Virus record (IMG/VR): IMGVR_UViG_3300037010_001838
DNA from: a virus
Lineage: Duplodnaviria > Caudoviricetes
DNA: 64,000 bases
Strand: one strand, 5' to 3'
Each line of letters begins with the position of its first letter. Position 1 is the first letter of the stretch. Below, in pieces: positions 3,365-47,643 of this stretch. Under the pieces are notes generated by a model that saw only the letters and a list, made by a program, of their open reading frames with translations, was not told where the DNA came from and made no database searches. Made by a program: the position numbers and the translations under genes.

Positions 3365-3438
3365 GCTCAATTGGCTTAATGGTAAAGCAGGTGCTTCTAA
3401 AACACTTGACCGTCGGTTCGATTCCGACATTGGGCACC
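3365..3438 (+). tRNA. amber suppressor tRNA (CUA anticodon)
   Basis: acceptor GCTCAAT/ATTGGGC, D stem GCTT/AAGC, loop TT-CTA-AA (3395-3401) with a C31-A39 mismatch, T arm GTCGG-TTCGATT-CCGAC. Confidence 0.75.
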
Positions 3439-4139: not shown

Positions 4140-5190
4140 AGTATTAAGAAAGTCACTCTTTTAATTAGTTCTGTGAATTCAGAACGTTTCATCAGAAACA
4201 ATTTAAAAGATAAAGAATTACGCGCTTGTGCAAAGTAACCAACAGCGATGTTGTGAAAGCGGTAGGTCCTACAACTACCGCGCCCTGTAAGGGGTACAAA
4301 CAAGCAAGCCTGACCTACTCCGAAAGGAGCTGATTATCGCCAACGGTAGTCATATGAGGGAAGTTAGGGGTGTGGAAAGAACGAATGTTTACAAGCCTGC
4401 TCTGCAGGGAACTTGGGCATTTGGAGAGTAACGGGTTGTGCCGACCTCACGCCTACACAAACTAGCCATCTCAAAAGGTAAAGGGTAGTACAGTGGTCCG
4501 AACCCGCAAGTAAGGGCTGTTGTGCAAGTTGAGGGGGTTTTGGTACCTGTAATAGGGTGTCACGATTCCTGAAAACTGGTTGAGTAGTCGGCAGATGAAA
4601 AACATGAGGAGTGTGGTATTTTTATACTCAAAAGGTATGAAATCCACTGGAAACGCACTTCTTGGTAGGTTTAACAATGTTAGGGTTAACAGCCCATATA
4701 AATTTGGATTATATTACATAAAACGCAAAGACGTTTCCAGTGTAAAGTGAAAATGGCTTAATCCTTCAGCCGCAAGGTAATGAAGGCGTCCAAAACTCGC
4801 AAGGTCGAGGATGTTGAAAGAAAGTCGCACGCAGAGAGTTAGCGCTCTTGTACAGCTCGCAAGGTTGGCGGTAGACAGATAATCGAGTAGCTTTACATGT
4901 TGGTGGAAAAGCAACCACTTAAAAAATGCAGTCATGTTGATAGACATAGTTGTGCGAAAGCTGATTATGTGGATAAGAGAAGAACTCTAGCTGTAGCAGG
5001 TGATGAGATAATGTCTCGAAGGTATCAATAGTATAGGTTTAATCTCAACCTTATACAAAGTAAATGCCTCGATTGGGGTGTCTGCTTTAAACAATCTGTG
5101 TAGAACCTCCCTTGTAAAAGGGGTTAGAGAGTTGGTAATGTAGATTGTTTAAAGCAGACTTATGAACTGCCACTTTGAAAAAAGAGAGTA
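4140..5190 (+). ncRNA. large ornate ncRNA candidate (GOLLD/ROOL-like class)
   Basis: ~1 kb without a credible ORF, raised GC, many GNRA-capped hairpins, perfect 18-bp (5080-5097/5142-5159) and 11-bp (4645-4655/4732-4742) helices, next to tRNAs; boundaries approximate. Confidence 0.65.
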
Positions 5191-6129: not shown

Positions 6130-7632
6130 GTGAGCAAAGAATTTGTGGATGCCCTTTCTATTACAACCAATGTAGCGCACACGGAAAATGGTGCTGTTGC
6201 ATTTGATACAACCAAATCAGCTATGTTGGATTTGTTTGCACAAGGGGGTGCACTCCGCAATCGTGCTGATGATGAAATTCTTCGTTTGTTTTCAAAAGCT
6301 TATGCAGAAAATGCATTGTTTGCCACTCGTGCTATGTTCTATTTCAGGGACGCTCGTGGTGGTCAAGGTGAACGCGATACATTTAGAAAGCAATTAAAGT
6401 GGTTGATTAACGTTAACCCTGACGCTGTCCGTAAAAACATTAAACTTATTCCATACTTTGGACGTTGGGATGATTTGTATGTGTTATTTGATACAGAACT
6501 TGAAACAGATGCAATTACACTAATCTTTACACAGATTGCCGAAGACACGGCATCTGAACATCCCTCGTTGCTTGCAAAATGGTTGAAAAGTGAAAACGCT
6601 TCTTCAAAAGAAACGAAACGACTTGCAACAAAAACTCGTATAGGTCTTAAATTAAGTTCCAAAGCATATCGCTTGATGTTGAGCACTCTTCGTAAGAAAA
6701 TTAACATCGTTGAACGGTTGGTGTCTGCCAATCAGTGGGATAGTATTGAATACAGTGCCGTTCCTTCTCAAGCTAACTTGTTATATGGGAAAGCTTTCTT
6801 CACGCATGACGCTGAACGCCGTAAGAAATTCTTGGATTCTTTAAAGACTGGCGAAAAGAAAATCAATGCGAGTGTTCTTTTTCCATATGAAATCGTCCAT
6901 AAAGCACTTACGGTGGGCAGGAACACACCACAACACGAACGCCAACTCATAGATGCGTTGTGGGACGCTCTTCCAAACTATATTGGAGATAAACAAGAAA
7001 ATGCTCTTGCTGTAGTTGATGTGTCTGGTTCTATGGCTGGTCTTCCATTGGAAGTTGCTATTTCGGTTGGAATGTATTTGGCTGAACGTAACACTTGTGA
7101 AGCTTATCATAACAAGTTCATTACTTTTAGCTCTACACCTCAACTACTTAAAATTCAGGGAGCTGACCTTGTTGAAAAAATAGCTAATATGAATAGTTCT
7201 GCATGGGAAATGAATACAGATATTCAAGCTGTGTTCCGTTTGATTCTTACTGTTGCCAAACAAAACAAGTTAGCACAATCTGAATTACCACAGAAGTTGT
7301 ATATCATTTCTGATATGGAATTTGATGCCGCTATAAGCAACGCTAGATATTCTTATAAGAATCAATGTCGGGGTGTGGTTGACGAAAAATTTTTCCAAAC
7401 AATTTCTAAAGAATTTAGTGAGTGTGGATATACAATGCCCAATTTGGTGTTTTGGAATGTTGATGCTCGGAACCAACAGTTTCCAATGAGTATGGATGAG
7501 CGTGGTTTTCAAATGGTTAGTGGATGTAGTCCGTCTATCTTTAAGCACACAATAGGTGGAGAATTTATGTCTGCTTATGATTTGATGCTTGATGTTATTA
7601 ACAGTGAACGTTATCAACTCGTTACAATTTAA
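6130..7632 (+). CDS. TROVE/Ro60-related vWA protein (DUF2828-like)
   Basis: TENGA, RDARGGQGER and vWA MIDAS VVDVSGSM motifs; ISDMEFD; FWNV. Confidence 0.85.
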   Translation: MSKEFVDALSITTNVAHTENGAVAFDTTKSAMLDLFAQGGALRNRADDEILRLFSKAYAENALFATRAMFYFRDARGGQGERDTFRKQLKWLINVNPDAVRKNIKLIPYFGRWDDLYVLFDTELETDAITLIFTQIAEDTASEHPSLLAKWLKSENASSKETKRLATKTRIGLKLSSKAYRLMLSTLRKKINIVERLVSANQWDSIEYSAVPSQANLLYGKAFFTHDAERRKKFLDSLKTGEKKINASVLFPYEIVHKALTVGRNTPQHERQLIDALWDALPNYIGDKQENALAVVDVSGSMAGLPLEVAISVGMYLAERNTCEAYHNKFITFSSTPQLLKIQGADLVEKIANMNSSAWEMNTDIQAVFRLILTVAKQNKLAQSELPQKLYIISDMEFDAAISNARYSYKNQCRGVVDEKFFQTISKEFSECGYTMPNLVFWNVDARNQQFPMSMDERGFQMVSGCSPSIFKHTIGGEFMSAYDLMLDVINSERYQLVTI

Positions 7633-8383: not shown

Positions 8384-9172
8384 ATGAAATTTCTTATTCA
8401 ACACAATTTAATGGATAAAGAACAACTTCAGTTAACAAAAGCTGCTGTTGAACAATACCCACATGAATTTGTTGGATTAATTCCTTTCTCTCGAGAAATA
8501 ACTTCAACCGAACCATTAACAGGAACCAAATACATTCCTTATGGTTCAACACTATTAACAAACCTTGCTTATGAATTAAAATGGGAAGGTCTCTATTTTG
8601 ATTTAGCTAAATTCAATTACGAAGCTGCTGCATCCAACCGTGACGATATGATGAATGCACAGTTCATTAAACCATTGAACGTGACGATTGAGTTTTTACA
8701 CACGAGACCAGATAACGAACTTTGGTTTATTCGTCCTTCAGAAGATCTGAAACAATTTTCTGGACAAATTATTGAAGCGAAAGAATGTAGAGAATGGCTC
8801 AAAGATGCAATGGAATGTGACATGTCTGGTACTTATAAAATGGAACCGGAAACGATGATTGTTCTTGCTGAACCACAGACGATTCAAGCTGAATGGCGTT
8901 GGTTTGTTGTTGGAGGGGAAATTGTTGACGGTTCCATGTACCGTGCAAATGGACAATTAATTAAAAATCATGAAACGGAAACTGGCGTTATAAAAGAAGC
9001 ACAAAAATTCGCCGATAAATGGGTACCAAGTCCGTGTTGTGTTATGGACACAGCTCTTGTCGATGACAAAATAAAGGTTATAGAATTTAACTGTATTAAC
9101 TCATCAGGTTTTTACAATCATAACGTATCAAAAATATTTTCAGCCTTATATGATTACTCAATCAATCGTTGA
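8384..9172 (+). CDS. ATP-grasp domain protein (DUF4343/R2K-like)
   Basis: FIRPSEDLKQFSG, EWRWFVVGGEIV, VMD, VIEFNCINSSGFY. Confidence 0.8.
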   Translation: MKFLIQHNLMDKEQLQLTKAAVEQYPHEFVGLIPFSREITSTEPLTGTKYIPYGSTLLTNLAYELKWEGLYFDLAKFNYEAAASNRDDMMNAQFIKPLNVTIEFLHTRPDNELWFIRPSEDLKQFSGQIIEAKECREWLKDAMECDMSGTYKMEPETMIVLAEPQTIQAEWRWFVVGGEIVDGSMYRANGQLIKNHETETGVIKEAQKFADKWVPSPCCVMDTALVDDKIKVIEFNCINSSGFYNHNVSKIFSALYDYSINR

Positions 9173-18793: not shown

Positions 18794-18880
18794 GCACGGG
18801 AAGTCAGATGGATTGGACACCACCCTTTCAAGGTGGCAGGTGAAAACCGTTTGCGGGTTCGAGTCCCGTTCCGTGCTCCA
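18794..18880 (+). tRNA. tRNA-Glu(UUC) with long variable arm
   Basis: CCACC-CTTTCAA-GGTGG, ~16-nt variable region, CCA. Confidence 0.85.
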
Positions 18881-23395: not shown

Positions 23396-23510
23396 GTTGT
23401 TGTATATCAGTTGGTTAGAGATAACGTCTGCTCGAGGGTGTAGCCCCCGGTAAAGGACCGCAACGCTGCAGATAAAACGTTCGCCGATGGTTCGAGTCCA
23501 TCCAACAACA
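23396..23510 (+). tRNA. tRNA-like gene with ~41-nt structured insertion in the anticodon loop
   Basis: normal acceptor, D and T arms; AACGT-CTG[insert]ATAA-AACGTT. Confidence 0.7.
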
Positions 23511-23519
23511 CTAGATTTT

Positions 23520-32823: not shown

Positions 32824-32899
32824 GGGACCATAACTCAGTTGGTAGAGTATCTGCCCTACAAGCAGACTGTCATCGGTTCGAACCCGGTTGGTCCTACCA
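32824..32899 (+). tRNA. tRNA-Val(UAC)
   Basis: TCTGC-CCTACAA-GCAGA, CCA. Confidence 0.85.
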
Positions 32900-32905
32900 A
32901 ACAAC

Positions 32906-32990
32906 ACCACTGTGGCCGATAGGTTAGGCACAGGACCGATAATCCTGGAGGGAAACCTCGAAGTTGGTTCGATTCCAACCGGTGGTACCA
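32906..32990 (+). tRNA. tRNA-Ile(GAU) with long variable arm
   Basis: CAGGA-CCGATAA-TCCTG; V arm GAGG-GAAA-CCTC; CCA. Confidence 0.8.
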
Positions 32991-37878: not shown

Positions 37879-37952
37879 AGTCCCTTAACTCAATGGTAGA
37901 GTGCTGTCGTGACATGGCAGATACAGAAGTTCAATTCTTCTAGGGACTACCA
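37879..37952 (+). tRNA. tRNA-Val(GAC)
   Basis: CTGTC-GTGACAT-GGCAG, CCA. Confidence 0.85.
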
Positions 37953-37965
37953 AAGTTTCACTTGC

Positions 37966-38050
37966 TCCGGTCGGACTGGCTTGGTGAAGGTCTCGCACTG
38001 TTAATGCGAAGGCTCCGAAAGGAGGCGAGGTTCGATTCCTCGGACCGGAG
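37966..38050 (+). tRNA. tRNA-Asn(GUU) with long variable arm and extended acceptor helix
   Basis: TCGCA-CTGTTAA-TGCGA; V arm CTCC-GAAA-GGAG; flanks pair from 37957 to 38059; no CCA. Confidence 0.8.
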
Positions 38051-38065
38051 CAAGTGGAATTTAAT

Positions 38066-38140
38066 GGGGTGTTAGTGTCAGCGGAAGCACAGAAGACTTT
38101 TAATCTTTTAGGCTGGATTCGAATTCCAGGCGCCCTACCA
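38066..38140 (+). tRNA. tRNA-Lys(UUU)
   Basis: loop CT-TTT-AA, CCA. Confidence 0.9.
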
Positions 38141-38149
38141 AAATATAAT

Positions 38150-38223
38150 GCACCGCAAGCATTAAGGTGATGCAATAGGCTCTTACCCTGTAGAACACGG
38201 CTCAATACCGTGGCGGTGTACCA
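38150..38223 (+). tRNA. tRNA-Lys(CUU)
   Basis: ATAGG-CTCTTAC-CCTGT, CCA; atypical T loop. Confidence 0.8.
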
Positions 38224-38228
38224 TATTT

Positions 38229-38312
38229 CCATCCGACACCGAACTGGTACGGTACGAGACTTTTAATCTCGCGTCTTTGACTATGAGGGTTCGAATCCCT
38301 CCGGGTGGACCA
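38229..38312 (+). tRNA. tRNA-Lys(UUU) with variable-arm hairpin
   Basis: CGAGA-CTTTTAA-TCTCG; V region GTC-TTT-GAC; A73, CCA. Confidence 0.8.
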
Positions 38313-38433
38313 ACATATATAACAAGGAAACGAGGTAGTTGACTATCAAAACGATTCTAACTATAATATTTTAAGAAGCATTTGGGGTTTTCTTAGTTGA
38401 GAGATTGATAAATACTCAAAATTGGAGTATTGT

Positions 38434-39072
38434 ATGAAGTTATTTGAAATTATTGGAGGAGAAGCTCTTCGAAAATCTGATAGTGTTAAAGTTAGAAATG
38501 GTTACACAGACACAGATTCATTAAAACGCCTTGGGGTTGGCCTTCAGGCTGTTGTAGTCGATAGAATAAAGAAGCCTGGAGTGGTAACAAAAGTCTTTGG
38601 TTTTAACACAGAAGAAGATGGGTATCTTCAATTCCTGCGGTTTATTCAAAAACACCAAAATAACCCCTTTTTACCTCGAATTTATAAAATTCGTCTGTAT
38701 CGGAAAGAGTTTGATATATACATCAATAGAACAGATTCTGTTTATGATAATACAGGAGTTGTTGACATGGAAAAATTATTACCATTAAATTCTCCTAAAA
38801 TTAAAGATGCTATTTCTCATCAACTTCAGGCACTCGGAATGAATGAACAGTTTGCCGAAAGTCTTGCAACGAGCCAATTGATTAATTATTATCATGATGC
38901 TGTTGTTAACAAAAAAATTGAGCGCAACGCTCAATTTGAAGAAGTTGTTAATTTCTTACGCACGTATGGTGCTATAGCAGATTTAGACTTACATTCAGGA
39001 AACATTATGGCAAGGTTAACTTCTGTTGGTCCCCAGTTAGTTCTAATTGACCCTATTTGGAAACCTGATTAA
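38434..39072 (+). CDS. protein-kinase-like protein with capsid-targeting-like N-terminus
   Basis: LGVGLQAVV, VVTKV, DLHSGNIM, LVLIDP; MKLFEI start after TAAATA. Confidence 0.75.
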   Translation: MKLFEIIGGEALRKSDSVKVRNGYTDTDSLKRLGVGLQAVVVDRIKKPGVVTKVFGFNTEEDGYLQFLRFIQKHQNNPFLPRIYKIRLYRKEFDIYINRTDSVYDNTGVVDMEKLLPLNSPKIKDAISHQLQALGMNEQFAESLATSQLINYYHDAVVNKKIERNAQFEEVVNFLRTYGAIADLDLHSGNIMARLTSVGPQLVLIDPIWKPD

Positions 39073-39122
39073 AAATATCTGTTGACCCTTTAATCGTTTC
39101 TGTATATAATATTCCTTAATAT

Positions 39123-39198
39123 GTCCCGTTAGCTCAGTTGGATAGAGCACTTGTGTGACATGCAATATACGGCAGTTCAATTCTGCCGGGGACTACCA
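39123..39198 (+). tRNA. tRNA-Val(GAC), acceptor stem out of register
   Basis: loop GT-GAC-AT as at 37879; CCA; imperfect acceptor. Confidence 0.55.
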
Positions 39199-39208
39199 AA
39201 GTTTCAAG

Positions 39209-39326
39209 TGTTCCAGTTGAGCCGCGGGGTGTGGCAGCGGACTGATGCAAAAGCCCCTTCTAACGAGGAGGCTTTGATTAATCCGTGACGAAAGTCTAGT
39301 TTGGTTCGACACCAAAAACTGGAGCA
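39209..39326 (+). ncRNA. atypical tRNA-like RNA with 10-bp acceptor and elongated central arm
   Basis: TGTTCCAGTT/AACTGGAGCA, D-like CCGC/GCGG, GAC-GAAA-GTC arm, T arm TTTGG-TTCGACA-CCAAA. Confidence 0.6.
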
Positions 39327-39341
39327 GTTGGAATTTTATAT

Positions 39342-39457
39342 GGAGGTCTAGCCTAGTGGATAGGCACCGGACTTATTCGAGCATCTGCGAAATCGGGTGT
39401 TCCTGTTAATCCGGACCGTAATGGTATAGCGTGAGTTCGAATCTCCGGGCCTCTACC
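39342..39457 (+). tRNA. tRNA-Asn(GUU)-like with 31-nt hairpin insertion in the anticodon loop
   Basis: CCGGA-CT[39374-39404]GTTAA-TCCGG; V arm hairpin; imperfect T stem. Confidence 0.7.
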
Positions 39458-39466
39458 GAATTATTT

Positions 39467-39530
39467 GGATTGCAAGCATTAAGATGGTGCAGTGAGCTTT
39501 CACCTCACAGAACACGGATTGTTGTTGTGG
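39467..39530 (+). pseudogene. tRNA-Glu(UUC)-like 5' portion, 3' end lost
   Basis: GTGAG-CTTTCAC-CTCAC anticodon arm intact; no acceptor 3' strand. Confidence 0.55.
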
Positions 39531-39601
39531 AAGTATACCAGTGTAACGGATAACACACTCGTCTTTCGTATAAATAAATAAATACAAATCGGAAGATCGT
39601 A

Positions 39602-40426
39602 TTGGTGAGAAGAAACAAGCAGTGTGATAAGTGTGGAGATTTAATCTCACTATCGAATATATCAAAACACGAGAAATCGTGTAATGGGACGGGTAAAACA
39701 AATAAACCAAAATTGTTATGTTGTCCGTATTGTAACATAAACTTGGCCGAACACTACCTAACTACACCCAGTCGCCGAGCAAATCACGTTAGGTGGTGTA
39801 TTGATAACCCAAAGCATGATGAATATATAGATAACCTTAACATTCACCTTGATAACGCACGTCGCACAGTAATATCCACCCCAGAAGAAGTTAAACGCCG
39901 GGCTTTACTTGTATCACAAAGACACAAAGAAGGTCGATATGAGCAAGCACACAAAGATAGAATAGGTAAAACAGGTAAAAAACATACCCCTGAGACAAAA
40001 GCAAGATTATCAAACATCAGAAAAGAATGGCTTAAAAACAATCCAGACAAACATCCGTGGAAACGTCCTGGAAAAAATATATCAAAACCTTGTGAAGATT
40101 TTAAACAGTTGTTAACAAATAATGAATATGAATATACGTCAGAATTTCAACCGTTGCAAACAAGATATTTCTCTATTGATATTGTATTCCCTCAGTATAA
40201 AGTAGGAATAGAAATAAACGGAAACCAGCACTACAACAGAGATGGTACACTGAAGACATATTACCAAAACAGGCATGATCTAATAGTAACTGATGGTTGG
40301 GTGTTGTTTGAATTGCCATATTATGAAGTATACAGTCAGGATTCAGTTGACATTATGATGTGTTTACTGGATAATCTACTTATATTAAATGGAAATAACC
40401 AGGCTCTTCTAAAGCCTCATTCGTGA
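39602..40426 (+). CDS. putative homing endonuclease (Zn finger, NUMOD3-like, DUF559/Vsr-type domain)
   Basis: GKKHTPETKARLS; YFSIDIVF...IEINGNQHY. Confidence 0.8.
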   Translation: MVRRNKQCDKCGDLISLSNISKHEKSCNGTGKTNKPKLLCCPYCNINLAEHYLTTPSRRANHVRWCIDNPKHDEYIDNLNIHLDNARRTVISTPEEVKRRALLVSQRHKEGRYEQAHKDRIGKTGKKHTPETKARLSNIRKEWLKNNPDKHPWKRPGKNISKPCEDFKQLLTNNEYEYTSEFQPLQTRYFSIDIVFPQYKVGIEINGNQHYNRDGTLKTYYQNRHDLIVTDGWVLFELPYYEVYSQDSVDIMMCLLDNLLILNGNNQALLKPHS

Positions 40427-40448
40427 TTCGATTCCACGGCGGGGCCAC
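40375..40448 (+). pseudogene. tRNA-Arg(UCU) remnant overlapping the endonuclease 3' end
   Basis: AGGCT-CTTCTAA-AGCCT and a T-like arm; 5' acceptor strand lost. Confidence 0.5.
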
Positions 40449-40766
40449 TTACAACACATGAAGGTCACACGAAACACACTACTATTCCAGCAGGTTATCG
40501 GTTGACAGTCAAATCTTGGGAAAACGATGGAGACCACAACAAAACTACAGTAACAGCAGGTCTCTCAAATGGACGAAATTGTTGATCTAACACTAAGATA
40601 CTACGACCAGATCGCTATAAGGTCAGCAGTGAAACTGTTTTGAGATATAGGTAAAAATCAACAACTACTAACTAATTTTGTAGTTCTAGTAGTTGGTCTT
40701 CTTTTGATTCGGATTCCAGTAGTGCGTCATTTGACTGACGGTGGTGGTTCTTCAGAAGGATGGTAA

Positions 40767-42934: not shown

Positions 42935-43504
42935 ATGTCACAAATCATATTTATAGACATCGACGGACCACTACTTCCACGTAGAGCTTGGTGTCTACCT
43001 GAAAATATTCAACTTTTAAATGAATCCCGAAAATCTGGAAATCATCCCTTTAGACACAAGGATTTACACAACATTGTTAAATTTGACCCAATTGCCGTCA
43101 GTTTCTTTAACACGTGGACAGAGAACAATGATGTTGTTGGAGTTATTTCATCAAACTGGTTTCATTATGCGTCTCGAGAACAAATTGAACTGACGTTCAA
43201 AAACAACAATTTGAAAATTCAGTTACACCAAAATTGGCACACACCAAGAGCCGGTGATGGTGGGAGAACTGAAGAAATAAAACGTTGGTTGGATGTTCAT
43301 TATGTTGACAATTTCATCATCGTTGATGATGACCCTGACTTAATAAGTCCGTCTGCTTCCATATTAATACCTGATATTGAATCACATCTACTTTATATAC
43401 AGTATGAGATTGGCTTGACATTGGAACACCACGCTCGGGCTTGTAACCTACTAAACGTGGATTTTTCCCATCAAGGATTACCGAAATTAACATATCAAAT
43501 ATAA
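42935..43504 (+). CDS. HAD-superfamily phosphatase (RNA-repair-associated type)
   Basis: IFIDIDGPL, ISSNW, R.EEIKRWL, FIIVDDD. Confidence 0.8.
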   Translation: MSQIIFIDIDGPLLPRRAWCLPENIQLLNESRKSGNHPFRHKDLHNIVKFDPIAVSFFNTWTENNDVVGVISSNWFHYASREQIELTFKNNNLKIQLHQNWHTPRAGDGGRTEEIKRWLDVHYVDNFIIVDDDPDLISPSASILIPDIESHLLYIQYEIGLTLEHHARACNLLNVDFSHQGLPKLTYQI

Positions 43505-45755: not shown

Positions 45756-46097
45756 ATGATAATACTCTCTATGAAAACCCACACATTACGAAAATCAAAA
45801 ACACCAGGGCGTAAAATTCTTACGTTCACGCCCGGTTTTGTAGAAACAATCGTTGAAGCCCATCCTTGGGCAGCGCGGGCCTTTATTGGTTGTGTTCTCG
45901 AAGAGATTGACGCGTCTCTTGATATGGATCAACAACTTTTATTAACAGAACGAATTAAACCAATACCCACAACATCTTACGAACAACACACGACACTACA
46001 CTGGTTACAACAAGGTATACGTGTTCTTGATACTACATTACCAGTTTTATTATCAACACTGGATTTTGCTGCAAAAAGGATCTTTGGTGAAAATTGA
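45756..46097 (+). CDS. hypothetical protein
   Basis: 113-aa ORF after a promoter. Confidence 0.5.
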   Translation: MIILSMKTHTLRKSKTPGRKILTFTPGFVETIVEAHPWAARAFIGCVLEEIDASLDMDQQLLLTERIKPIPTTSYEQHTTLHWLQQGIRVLDTTLPVLLSTLDFAAKRIFGEN

Positions 46098-46731
46098 TTT
46101 TAAAAGAACGTGCCCAATTAAGTTATTCCCAATTATTACAGTACTAAACGCATTTTCTGACAACAATTACGTTGTGGGGGGAGCGACTCGTGATTTGTTG
46201 ATGGGAAAAACTCCAAATGATTACGACATCGTTACGGATATCCCAATGAAACGGTTAATCGAACTGTTTGAAGACGGTGGATTTGAAGTGTCTTTGACTG
46301 GTGTCGCACACTTTGTGCTTAACGTCCATTTCAGTAGTTATACCGTTGAAGTCAGCAATTTCCGAAAAGATGTGGTATGTGATGGTCGCCACGCGGAAGT
46401 TGAATTGGGAACAATCGATGATGATGCTCACCGTCGCGATTTTACCGTAAACGCGTTATACATTAACACCAAAACGATGGAGCTTATTGACCCAACTGGT
46501 ATGGGGATGGACGATATTAAAACGAGAACGTTACGTTTTGTTGGAAAACCCAAAGACCGTATCAAAGAAGACTACTTGAGGGTAATCCGTTTTTACAGAT
46601 TTGTTGGCCGTGGATTTACTCCAGACCCGAAATCTTTAAAGGCTTGTCGAGAAATGTTCAACGAAGCATACACCAGTGTCGCAGCCGAACGCGTTCGGGT
46701 TGAAATTGAAAAAATCGTTGGGATTGATTAG
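46087..46731 (+). CDS. cca: class II tRNA nucleotidyltransferase (CCA-adding/poly(A) polymerase head domain)
   Basis: VVGGATRDLLMG..PNDYDIVT, DAHRRDFTVNAL, EDYLRVIRFYRF. Confidence 0.85.
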   Translation: MKIDFKRTCPIKLFPIITVLNAFSDNNYVVGGATRDLLMGKTPNDYDIVTDIPMKRLIELFEDGGFEVSLTGVAHFVLNVHFSSYTVEVSNFRKDVVCDGRHAEVELGTIDDDAHRRDFTVNALYINTKTMELIDPTGMGMDDIKTRTLRFVGKPKDRIKEDYLRVIRFYRFVGRGFTPDPKSLKACREMFNEAYTSVAAERVRVEIEKIVGID

Positions 46732-47229: not shown

Positions 47230-47643
47230 ATGACGACTAATTGGGTTAAAGCAACAGGGAAACTTGTATATGAACCAAAACGTCCAGAACTTCGGAAAAC
47301 TCGCCAAAACGATGATTGGTGGTTAATCGTCGAAACGGACCCCCGTATTGCAAATTATTACAATTGGTGGGTTGAAAGAATGTGGGGGCTTCGACTTCAA
47401 CTTCCAGCGTGGAAAGCTCATGTCACAGTTCTTGATGGACGGTATCCAGTTAAGCCTGAATTTCGAAACATGTGGAAAGCTCATGCTGGTGAAATCATCA
47501 CGTTCGAATACAATGTTGAATTTGAACAACATTGGAAGTTCTTCGCACTTCCTGTTCGTAGCAAAAAATTAAACGACTATAGAAAAGAACTTGGATTCAA
47601 ACCAATTAACAATATGCATATTACTTTTGGGAGAATGGTGTGA
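47230..47643 (+). CDS. 2H-phosphoesterase-like protein
   Basis: two HxT motifs (AHVTV, MHITF) about 70 aa apart in 137 aa. Confidence 0.7.
   Translation: MTTNWVKATGKLVYEPKRPELRKTRQNDDWWLIVETDPRIANYYNWWVERMWGLRLQLPAWKAHVTVLDGRYPVKPEFRNMWKAHAGEIITFEYNVEFEQHWKFFALPVRSKKLNDYRKELGFKPINNMHITFGRMV

Follow-up and report, generated by a model that had tools for sequence, protein, structure and literature searches.

The stretch of DNA analysed here, 64,000 nucleotides long and referred to below as the window, comes from the large genome of a T4-like phage, with 36% GC and about 40 tRNA genes; it also carries a GOLLD RNA within its tRNA region (positions 4606-5051; Rfam RF02032, 198.8 bits) and genes of the rIIA/rIIB type. 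A tRNA with a CUA anticodon, of the amber suppressor type, is present at 3365-3438, although TAG or TAA is the stop codon of many of the window's ORFs (code 11). The gene that concerns us, at positions 39342-39457, was missed by standard ARAGORN and by Rfam and was detected by ARAGORN with introns allowed, which also called two further split tRNA genes in the window (39212-39325 and 23396-23511). It consists of a tRNA body in which the anticodon stem CCGGA/TCCGG (39367-39371/39410-39414) encloses 38 nt in place of the usual 7, so that, as an earlier note on this DNA had recognized, the anticodon loop contains an extra 31 nt. The exons joined to one another give an 85-nt spliced form that folds as a cloverleaf. 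Coordinates of the features are collected in Table 1.

Table 1. Features of the split tRNA gene, its cassette and the nearby RNA repair genes (positions are those of the window)
Feature	Positions	Strand	Basis or remarks
Intronless tRNA-Lys(UUU), same slot of the resident cluster	38066..38140	+	Second copy at 38229-38312
Predicted sigma-70-type promoter, TTGACC-N17-TATAAT	39082..39110	+	Consensus match only; upstream of the cassette
Strain-variable cassette, 1516 bp	39100..40615	+	Missing from G001/L020/L242, L243 and L245
tRNA-Val(GAC), first cassette gene	39123..39198	+	
tRNA-Asn(GUU) with 33-nt hairpin insert at 34/35 (39245-39277)	39212..39325	+	ARAGORN with introns, model R1
5' exon, tRNA-Lys(UUU)	39342..39374	+	ARAGORN with introns; identical in L224; acceptor 5' strand (G1), D arm, anticodon stem 5' strand 39367-39371, C32 U33 U34
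Predicted 31-nt mini-intron at 34/35	39375..39405	+	Fold, register table, covariation, L224 changes
3' exon	39406..39457	+	U35 U36 A37 A38, stem 39410-39414, long variable arm, T arm with one bulge/mismatch, acceptor 3' strand, A73 (39455), CC
Degenerate tRNA, Lys(CUU) slot	39467..39540	+	Alignments to 38150-38223 and L224; not called by ARAGORN
Free-standing Vsr/DUF559-like endonuclease ORF, NUMOD3-like motif	39602..40426	+	
HAD phosphatase, RNA-repair type (HAD_SAK_2)	42935..43504	+	Pfam E 2e-16
Candidate ATP-dependent RNA ligase, 373 aa	43512..44633	+	KxD motif I and EGxV motif IV conserved in alignment
tRNA nucleotidyltransferase, CCA-adding type	46021..46731	+	Pfam PolyA_pol E 3e-29
2H phosphoesterase-like protein (2H-SAK)	47230..47643	+	Pfam E 8e-4, below cut-off

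Since an independent contig (L049) is 100% identical across positions 39147-40521, the split tRNA gene is not an assembly artefact. Its insert is laid out as 4 unpaired nt, a hairpin and 3 unpaired nt, the hairpin pairing 39379-39387 with 39394-39402 around a 6-nt loop (-10.2 kcal/mol). The earlier note had drawn this hairpin as GAGCATC/GGTGTTC; the structure is real and covaries across nine relatives, but at 9 bp it is longer than was stated. Taken alone the hairpin is modest when compared with shuffled sequences (p about 0.04), and it is the comparative evidence that gives it significance.

Eight different 31-nt deletions each restore a 7-nt loop and, when tabulated by register, read as Asn GUU, Lys UUU or Ile UAU. 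The note had removed 39374-39404, bounded by a CT repeat, and had called the gene tRNA-Asn; this deletion does formally give the loop CTGTTAA, but data from the related genes select 39375-39405, one base later. A cut between positions 34 and 35 leaves a normal anticodon that fits the tRNA body in 10 of 10 related genes of clear identity (Leu, Tyr, Asn), identities that were assigned from sequence features and not from charging data, with the 5' exon of L172 matching annotated tRNA-Leu genes. The next best register, 33/34, fits in 3 of the 10, and the remaining ones in 0-1. Further, in a related phage (L224; ENA ERZ19569207), the proteins of which are 49-68% identical to those of the window, the orthologue of the adjacent tRNA-Asn gene is free of an insert and has the loop CTGTTAA, which is reproduced by the 34/35 register only.

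The discriminator base of the split gene is A in both the window and L224, and among phage tRNAs from the fetched loci A73 was found in 13/13 Lys(UUU) and G73 in 12/14 Asn. When base 34 was masked, the Lys(UUU) of L002 was the best match to be had from 436 intronless tRNAs, and in the Val-Asn-Lys-Lys order of its cluster the gene stands in the slot where Lys(UUU) belongs, after Asn and before Lys(CUU). Taken together, the register fit in the family, the Asn orthologue, A73 with the best intronless match, and the gene slot place the intron at 39375-39405, where it is predicted to split anticodon bases 34 and 35, its removal yielding tRNA-Lys(UUU). After removal the gene has both the UUU anticodon and the A73 of a tRNA-Lys(UUU), and it lacks the G73 of a tRNA-Asn(GUU). 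An insert located at 33/34 or earlier, bounded by the CT repeat and leaving tRNA-Asn(GUU), is formally possible in the window gene and in L224; we give it very little chance in view of the 3/10 fit, the discriminator base, and the best intronless match and gene slot, all of which point elsewhere. The second CT of the supposed repeat reads CG in L224, and the repeat is therefore not a conserved feature of the insert bounds but incidental.

The insert belongs to a family of 31-33-nt hairpins that occur in tRNA genes for Leu(UAA), Leu(UAG), Tyr(GUA), Asn, Lys and probably Met/Ile2(CAU) of uncultured large phages. The consensus obtained from genome reads and pattern scans is a core GAGYATCTGC, a loop of 4-5 nt and GCGGGTRYTC; most matches in the pattern scans were due to chance, and nine distinct tRNA-embedded members were kept. 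Over these nine the hairpin is 97.8% paired, three pairs show double changes (covariation), and two U-G pairs are retained in 9/9 and 8/9 members, indicating that pairing is preserved on the RNA strand only. A model built from the nine members (R1) gave them 59.5-70.9 bits on the forward strand and at most 33.8 on the reverse strand, and it recovered the insert of the L224 orthologue (44 bits) and that of the adjacent Asn gene (33.7 bits, E 1e-5), neither of which had been used in training. With the 34/35 register, exactly 3 unpaired nt are found on the 3' side in 12 of 13 inserts and 4-5 on the 5' side in all of them, the 13 being related and not independent sequences; the ends of the 43-nt insert of L231, whose stem is different, follow the same layout. 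No junction bases are conserved among the 13. The unpaired-base counts place each junction 3 nt after a helix, within a nearly two-fold symmetric internal loop. The earlier note had proposed that homologues be compared for conservation of the insert, and its position, 34/35, is kept across the family.

Neither the split gene nor the insert was found in cultured phage records. One exact pattern, which misses variants, gave a single chance match in GTDB genomes, within a coding region, and IMG/VR pattern scans for direct orthologues of the split gene returned chance matches or nothing. No description of the hairpin family was found in a literature search that reached few subscription papers. In a sister genome (G001; an IMG/VR record of 179 kb, 52% complete and about 98.5% identical to the window) a tRNA-Tyr(GUA) gene lying upstream of the window (L058:17895-18013) carries a 33-nt hairpin with GAGCAT/GTGTTC as in the Lys insert; no intronless Tyr gene was seen in the window or in the scanned stretches of that genome. 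The 10-mer GAGTATCTGC has the same sequence as the 5' arm of the Leu(UAG) insert and is found at position 22 of tRNA-Val(UAC) in the window (32824-32899); 2 of 436 tRNAs contain it. This similarity does no more than suggest that the hairpin may have arisen from part of a tRNA.

Other kinds of insert were also seen in phage tRNA genes. The third split tRNA-like gene of the window (23396-23511) has a 42-nt branched insert (23431-23472), identical in the sister genome; it gives no match to model R1, and removal at 34/35 leaves the loop CTGTAAA (Tyr GUA) on a body with a short variable arm. A second insert family, of 28 nt, forms a fully paired extension of the anticodon stem in register 36/37 and leaves Arg(UCU) or Val(UAC); it was located in related phages of the same clade (L220:4300-4403, L221:2854-2960, L224:6991-7094 and L222:8219-8322). 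At L264:2744-2869, and in L269, L276 and L278, a tRNA-Lys(UUU)-like gene contains an insert that holds a complete Arg(UCU)-type anticodon arm, and beside this gene lies one homologous to the endonuclease gene of the cassette. Other phage tRNA arrays have unrelated inserts, 25-82 nt long, in their anticodon loops (L002:7567-7699, L051:7192-7358, L089, L203, L215 and L251).

Comparison with the L224 orthologue of the split Lys gene revealed 1/85 exon changes vs 5/31 insert changes (Fisher p 0.005), and among the latter a double change turns a C-G pair into A-U, while a U-G pair becomes C-G. Both phages share the irregular T stem and the long variable arm, which are hence not signs of recent decay. 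Long variable arms occur on intronless Lys, Asn, Ile and Glu genes of the window phage as well (18794-18880, Glu; 32906-32990, Ile; 37966-38051, Asn; 38229-38312, Lys), which is unusual for these amino acids. The exons of the split gene diverge less between the window and L224 than all neighbouring tRNAs and proteins do, an identity that could, on the sequences compared, reflect recent transfer of the gene instead of selection.

The cassette that holds the split gene comprises tRNA-Val(GAC), the Asn and Lys(UUU) genes with their inserts, the degenerate gene that occupies the Lys(CUU) slot (its loop is CTTTCAC, its T arm is weak and its acceptor has two mismatches), tRNA fragments and the endonuclease gene. 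It is a diverged paralogue, spacers included, of the cluster at 37879-38223, which has the order Val-Asn-Lys-Lys and is intronless. The predicted promoter is halved in strains that lack the cassette; that the strain junction splits it suggests loss from a larger acquired block. One such strain, L245, also lacks the kinase gene at 38422-39072, which lies between two tRNA clusters and encodes a T7-kinase-like Ser/Thr protein kinase; the same kinase is also recorded on a 338-kb contig. The endonuclease ORF is preceded by a T4-type late promoter motif, TATAAATA, at 39569-39576, and is flanked by tRNA-Arg-like fragments (39541-39568 and 40401-40447); for 26 of its 33 viral homologues, a tRNA gene lies within 1.5 kb. 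Judging from this gene arrangement, the cassette probably owes its mobility to the neighbouring endonuclease, in the way that T4 tRNA genes are carried along by SegB. Two intronless Lys(UUU) genes lie 1.1 kb from the split gene, itself a redundant third copy in this strain, and three sister assemblies are without the cassette; the split copy is therefore dispensable in this strain, where most Lys codons are AAA (187 vs 49).

A strain-variable, redundant cassette with a degenerate tRNA and tRNA fragments beside an endonuclease gene is consistent with a pseudogene carried in a homing cassette, the gene having been inactivated by a selfish or neutral insertion at the DNA level that, for example, blocks an endonuclease or integrase site. 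We regard this as improbable, since L224 has the same split Lys gene in an intact cluster with no endonuclease gene there, the exons show the low divergence described above, and the compensatory changes and conserved U-G pairs indicate selection on RNA.

At 31 nt and with no catalytic core, the insert is too small for self-splicing, as the earlier note had judged, and proteins would thus probably excise it and rejoin the halves. The note's suggestion of an intron remnant did not survive where group I is concerned. A core-less group I relic could be excised in trans by a group I ribozyme, and the sister genome has a candidate, a 235-nt intron of group I-like size in its tRNA-Leu(UAA) (L057:9390-9709); U34 and a terminal intron G do occur together in the split Lys gene and its L224 orthologue, though only in these two. 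The group I junction rule (U before the 5' site, terminal G) fails in the family, with U34 in 8/13, G or C at position 34 in the other 5/13, and a final G in only 2/13; the insert has no similarity beyond that of shuffled sequences to the tRNA-Leu intron, and there is no Rfam intron match at the locus. This origin we consider extremely improbable.

Ordinary maturation nucleases would need no new enzyme if RNase P at the 5' side, and RNase Z/E or exonucleases at the 3' side, mistook the hairpin for a mini-tRNA before ligation. Such a route requires a T loop, CCA and junctions at the stem base, whereas the hairpins, of 9-11 bp, lack both a T-loop consensus and CCA, and their junctions are separated from the stem base by 4-5 nt on the 5' side and by 3 nt on the 3' side; hence it seems very improbable. 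RNase III makes staggered cuts that leave 2-nt 3' overhangs, and it was rejected because the excised hairpin would carry 4-5 nt on the 5' side and 3 nt on the 3' side, the opposite stagger. Two further candidates were discarded. The pattern of group II intron domain V is GAGC...GAAA...GUUC; here its 2-nt bulge is missing, and the GNRA loop is absent in most members. Sequence-specific cutting like that of colicin E5 (YG/U at the 3' junction) would find GG/U in L224 and AA/A in others, the site not being conserved.

Candidate enzymes for end healing and sealing are encoded by the phage (Table 1). The predicted structure of the candidate ligase (pLDDT 89.7) has T4 Rnl2, a fungal tRNA ligase and T4 Rnl1 as its best Foldseek matches (E 2e-5 to 3e-4, TM 0.33-0.38), and on this confident model the protein is a candidate RNA ligase with a ligase fold of unclassified type. 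In the sister genome there is an intact gene for an RNA ligase of the DRB0094 type (L233:1021-2028; TIGR02306, over cut-off) as well as one for a Pnk-like kinase, and another relative, G003, encodes an Rnl1. A DUF2828/DUF7788 protein (6130-7632) and an R2K-clade ATP-grasp protein (8384-9172), both in the tRNA region, are plausible RNA-repair partners. The search for RtcB or a splicing endonuclease that the earlier note had advised turned up neither RtcB (PF01139) nor EndA (PF01974) in three incomplete relatives (G001, G003 and G004; 49-78% complete), but it did bring out this T4-type heal-and-seal set. It is worth noting that repair enzymes are common in large phages, and that anti-defence alone explains their presence.

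With the rules for group I, bulge-helix-bulge, RNase III and RNase P/Z processing all failing, and with sealing enzymes encoded, nuclease cuts followed by healing and sealing are favoured. We think it reasonably probable that the split Lys(UUU) gene holds a small non-catalytic intron which is removed by two structure-guided nuclease cuts and then heal-and-seal ligation; the protein-spliced mini-intron that the earlier note had listed is thus the leading option. In the folded precursor transcript, the anticodon stem would lead into an internal loop, 7x7 (or 8x7) and with approximate two-fold symmetry, and this in turn into the intron hairpin. A structure-reading endoribonuclease, either phage-encoded or a host nuclease of the anticodon type, would cut each strand 3 nt after the helix preceding the cut. 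The exon ends would be healed by the Pnk-type kinase and the HAD/2H end-healing enzymes of the phage, and the exons joined by an ATP-dependent RNA ligase (or host RtcB) to give the loop CUUUUAA. Position 76 is G in the window and C in L224; as it is not A, completion of the CCA must be enzymatic, and the CCA enzyme would finish the 3' end of the spliced tRNA before charging.

The RNA might instead remain unspliced and act at full length. It could then serve as a decoy or sponge that occupies host nucleases directed against tRNAs, or it could be a tRNA-like RNA that has a lengthened anticodon arm and resists nucleases. Conservation at the level of RNA structure extends over the whole gene, intronless backup tRNA genes are present in the window and in G003, phage tRNAs are shaped by anticodon nucleases (PMC10264068), and the search of the three incomplete relatives for a splicing nuclease (EndA) was empty, all of which would agree with such a role. 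It would, however, leave unexplained why base 34 and bases 35-38 match the tRNA body in 10/10 genes, and why the insert diverges faster than the exons; we therefore consider it unlikely. Protein-mediated removal of the intron remains our preferred reading. Its extension, that large phages run protein-catalysed tRNA splicing in bacteria by means of a new structure-specific endoribonuclease and phage ligation, with the hairpins spreading at 34/35, is advanced more tentatively.

Textbooks divide tRNA introns into those of bacteria, which self-splice, and those of archaea and eukaryotes, for which a protein endonuclease does the cutting (PMC3400036). A phage tRNA intron that is 31 nt long and non-catalytic belongs to neither class. 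Phage tRNA introns have been on record since 2019 with a mechanism lacking, and the hairpin family supplies a minimal 116-nt substrate, a predicted junction (CUU/UUAA), candidate ligases that can be named, and the rule that each junction falls 3 nt beyond a helix. Should the cuts be made by a host anticodon nuclease, the intron would let a defence set off the production of a phage tRNA. The redundancy of this Lys(UUU) copy lowers the weight of the case.

Among known systems, the cassette can be compared with T4 SegB, a free-standing homing endonuclease in a tRNA cluster that spreads itself with neighbouring tRNA genes (PMC2330249; PMC13096335). In both, an endonuclease gene sits in a tRNA array and the flanking tRNA genes are present or absent among close strains; SegB is a GIY-YIG enzyme, whereas the cassette ORF is Vsr/DUF559-like, with homing suggested by its context only. 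The repair step has its counterpart in T4 Pnkp and Rnl1, which reseal tRNA-Lys cut in the anticodon loop by PrrC (PMC3400036). The target, the anticodon loop of tRNA-Lys, is the same, and equivalents of the heal-and-seal enzyme classes are encoded by the window phage or its sister; the T4 enzymes mend one cut in a host tRNA with nothing excised, and the ligases here are of the DRB0094 type and of an unclassified ligase fold. As for group I introns of bacteria, their classical site is 34/35 of tRNA-Leu(UAA), and the hairpins share with them the 34/35 insertion and frequent occurrence in Leu(UAA) genes. They differ in being about one eighth of the size and in having no catalytic core P3-P9 (about 200 nt or more).

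Archaeal and eukaryotic tRNA introns are protein-spliced by EndA/TSEN and a ligase, archaeal ones being 16-44 nt in size (PMC3400036). The Lys insert is likewise short enough for that range and lies in the anticodon loop, and its removal restores a normal cloverleaf; as in those introns, it would present a pseudo-symmetric substrate for two cuts and would require a protein ligase. Unlike them, it occurs in a phage of a bacterial host, with no PF01974 in the three incomplete relatives, and there is no bulge-helix-bulge at the junctions: no family member has 4/4 central pairs, the exon-side helix has 0-1 of 2 pairs, a central 4-bp helix is missing, and the predicted cuts fall 3 nt beyond the flanking helices. 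Because of this failed test the hairpin intron is not classed with the archaeal introns, though it would work most like them.

The closest published case is that of the Lak megaphages, whose tRNA genes contain 'enigmatic' introns for which no mechanism or RNA evidence has been published (Devoto et al., 2019; PMC6784885, Table S6). Lak inserts are about 79-114 nt, AT-rich and tRNA-shaped with a T arm, at a site one base off the 37/38 prediction (36/37 by our reading), whereas the hairpins described here are 31-33 nt, consist of a single GC-rich hairpin at 34/35, and belong to one and the same sequence family, which extends over five or more types of tRNA. What the two have in common is a non-catalytic anticodon-loop insert in a tRNA of a very large phage, with no Rfam intron match and with optional presence, as evidenced here by the insert-free orthologue of the Asn neighbour in L224 and the intronless Lys(UUU) relative in L002.
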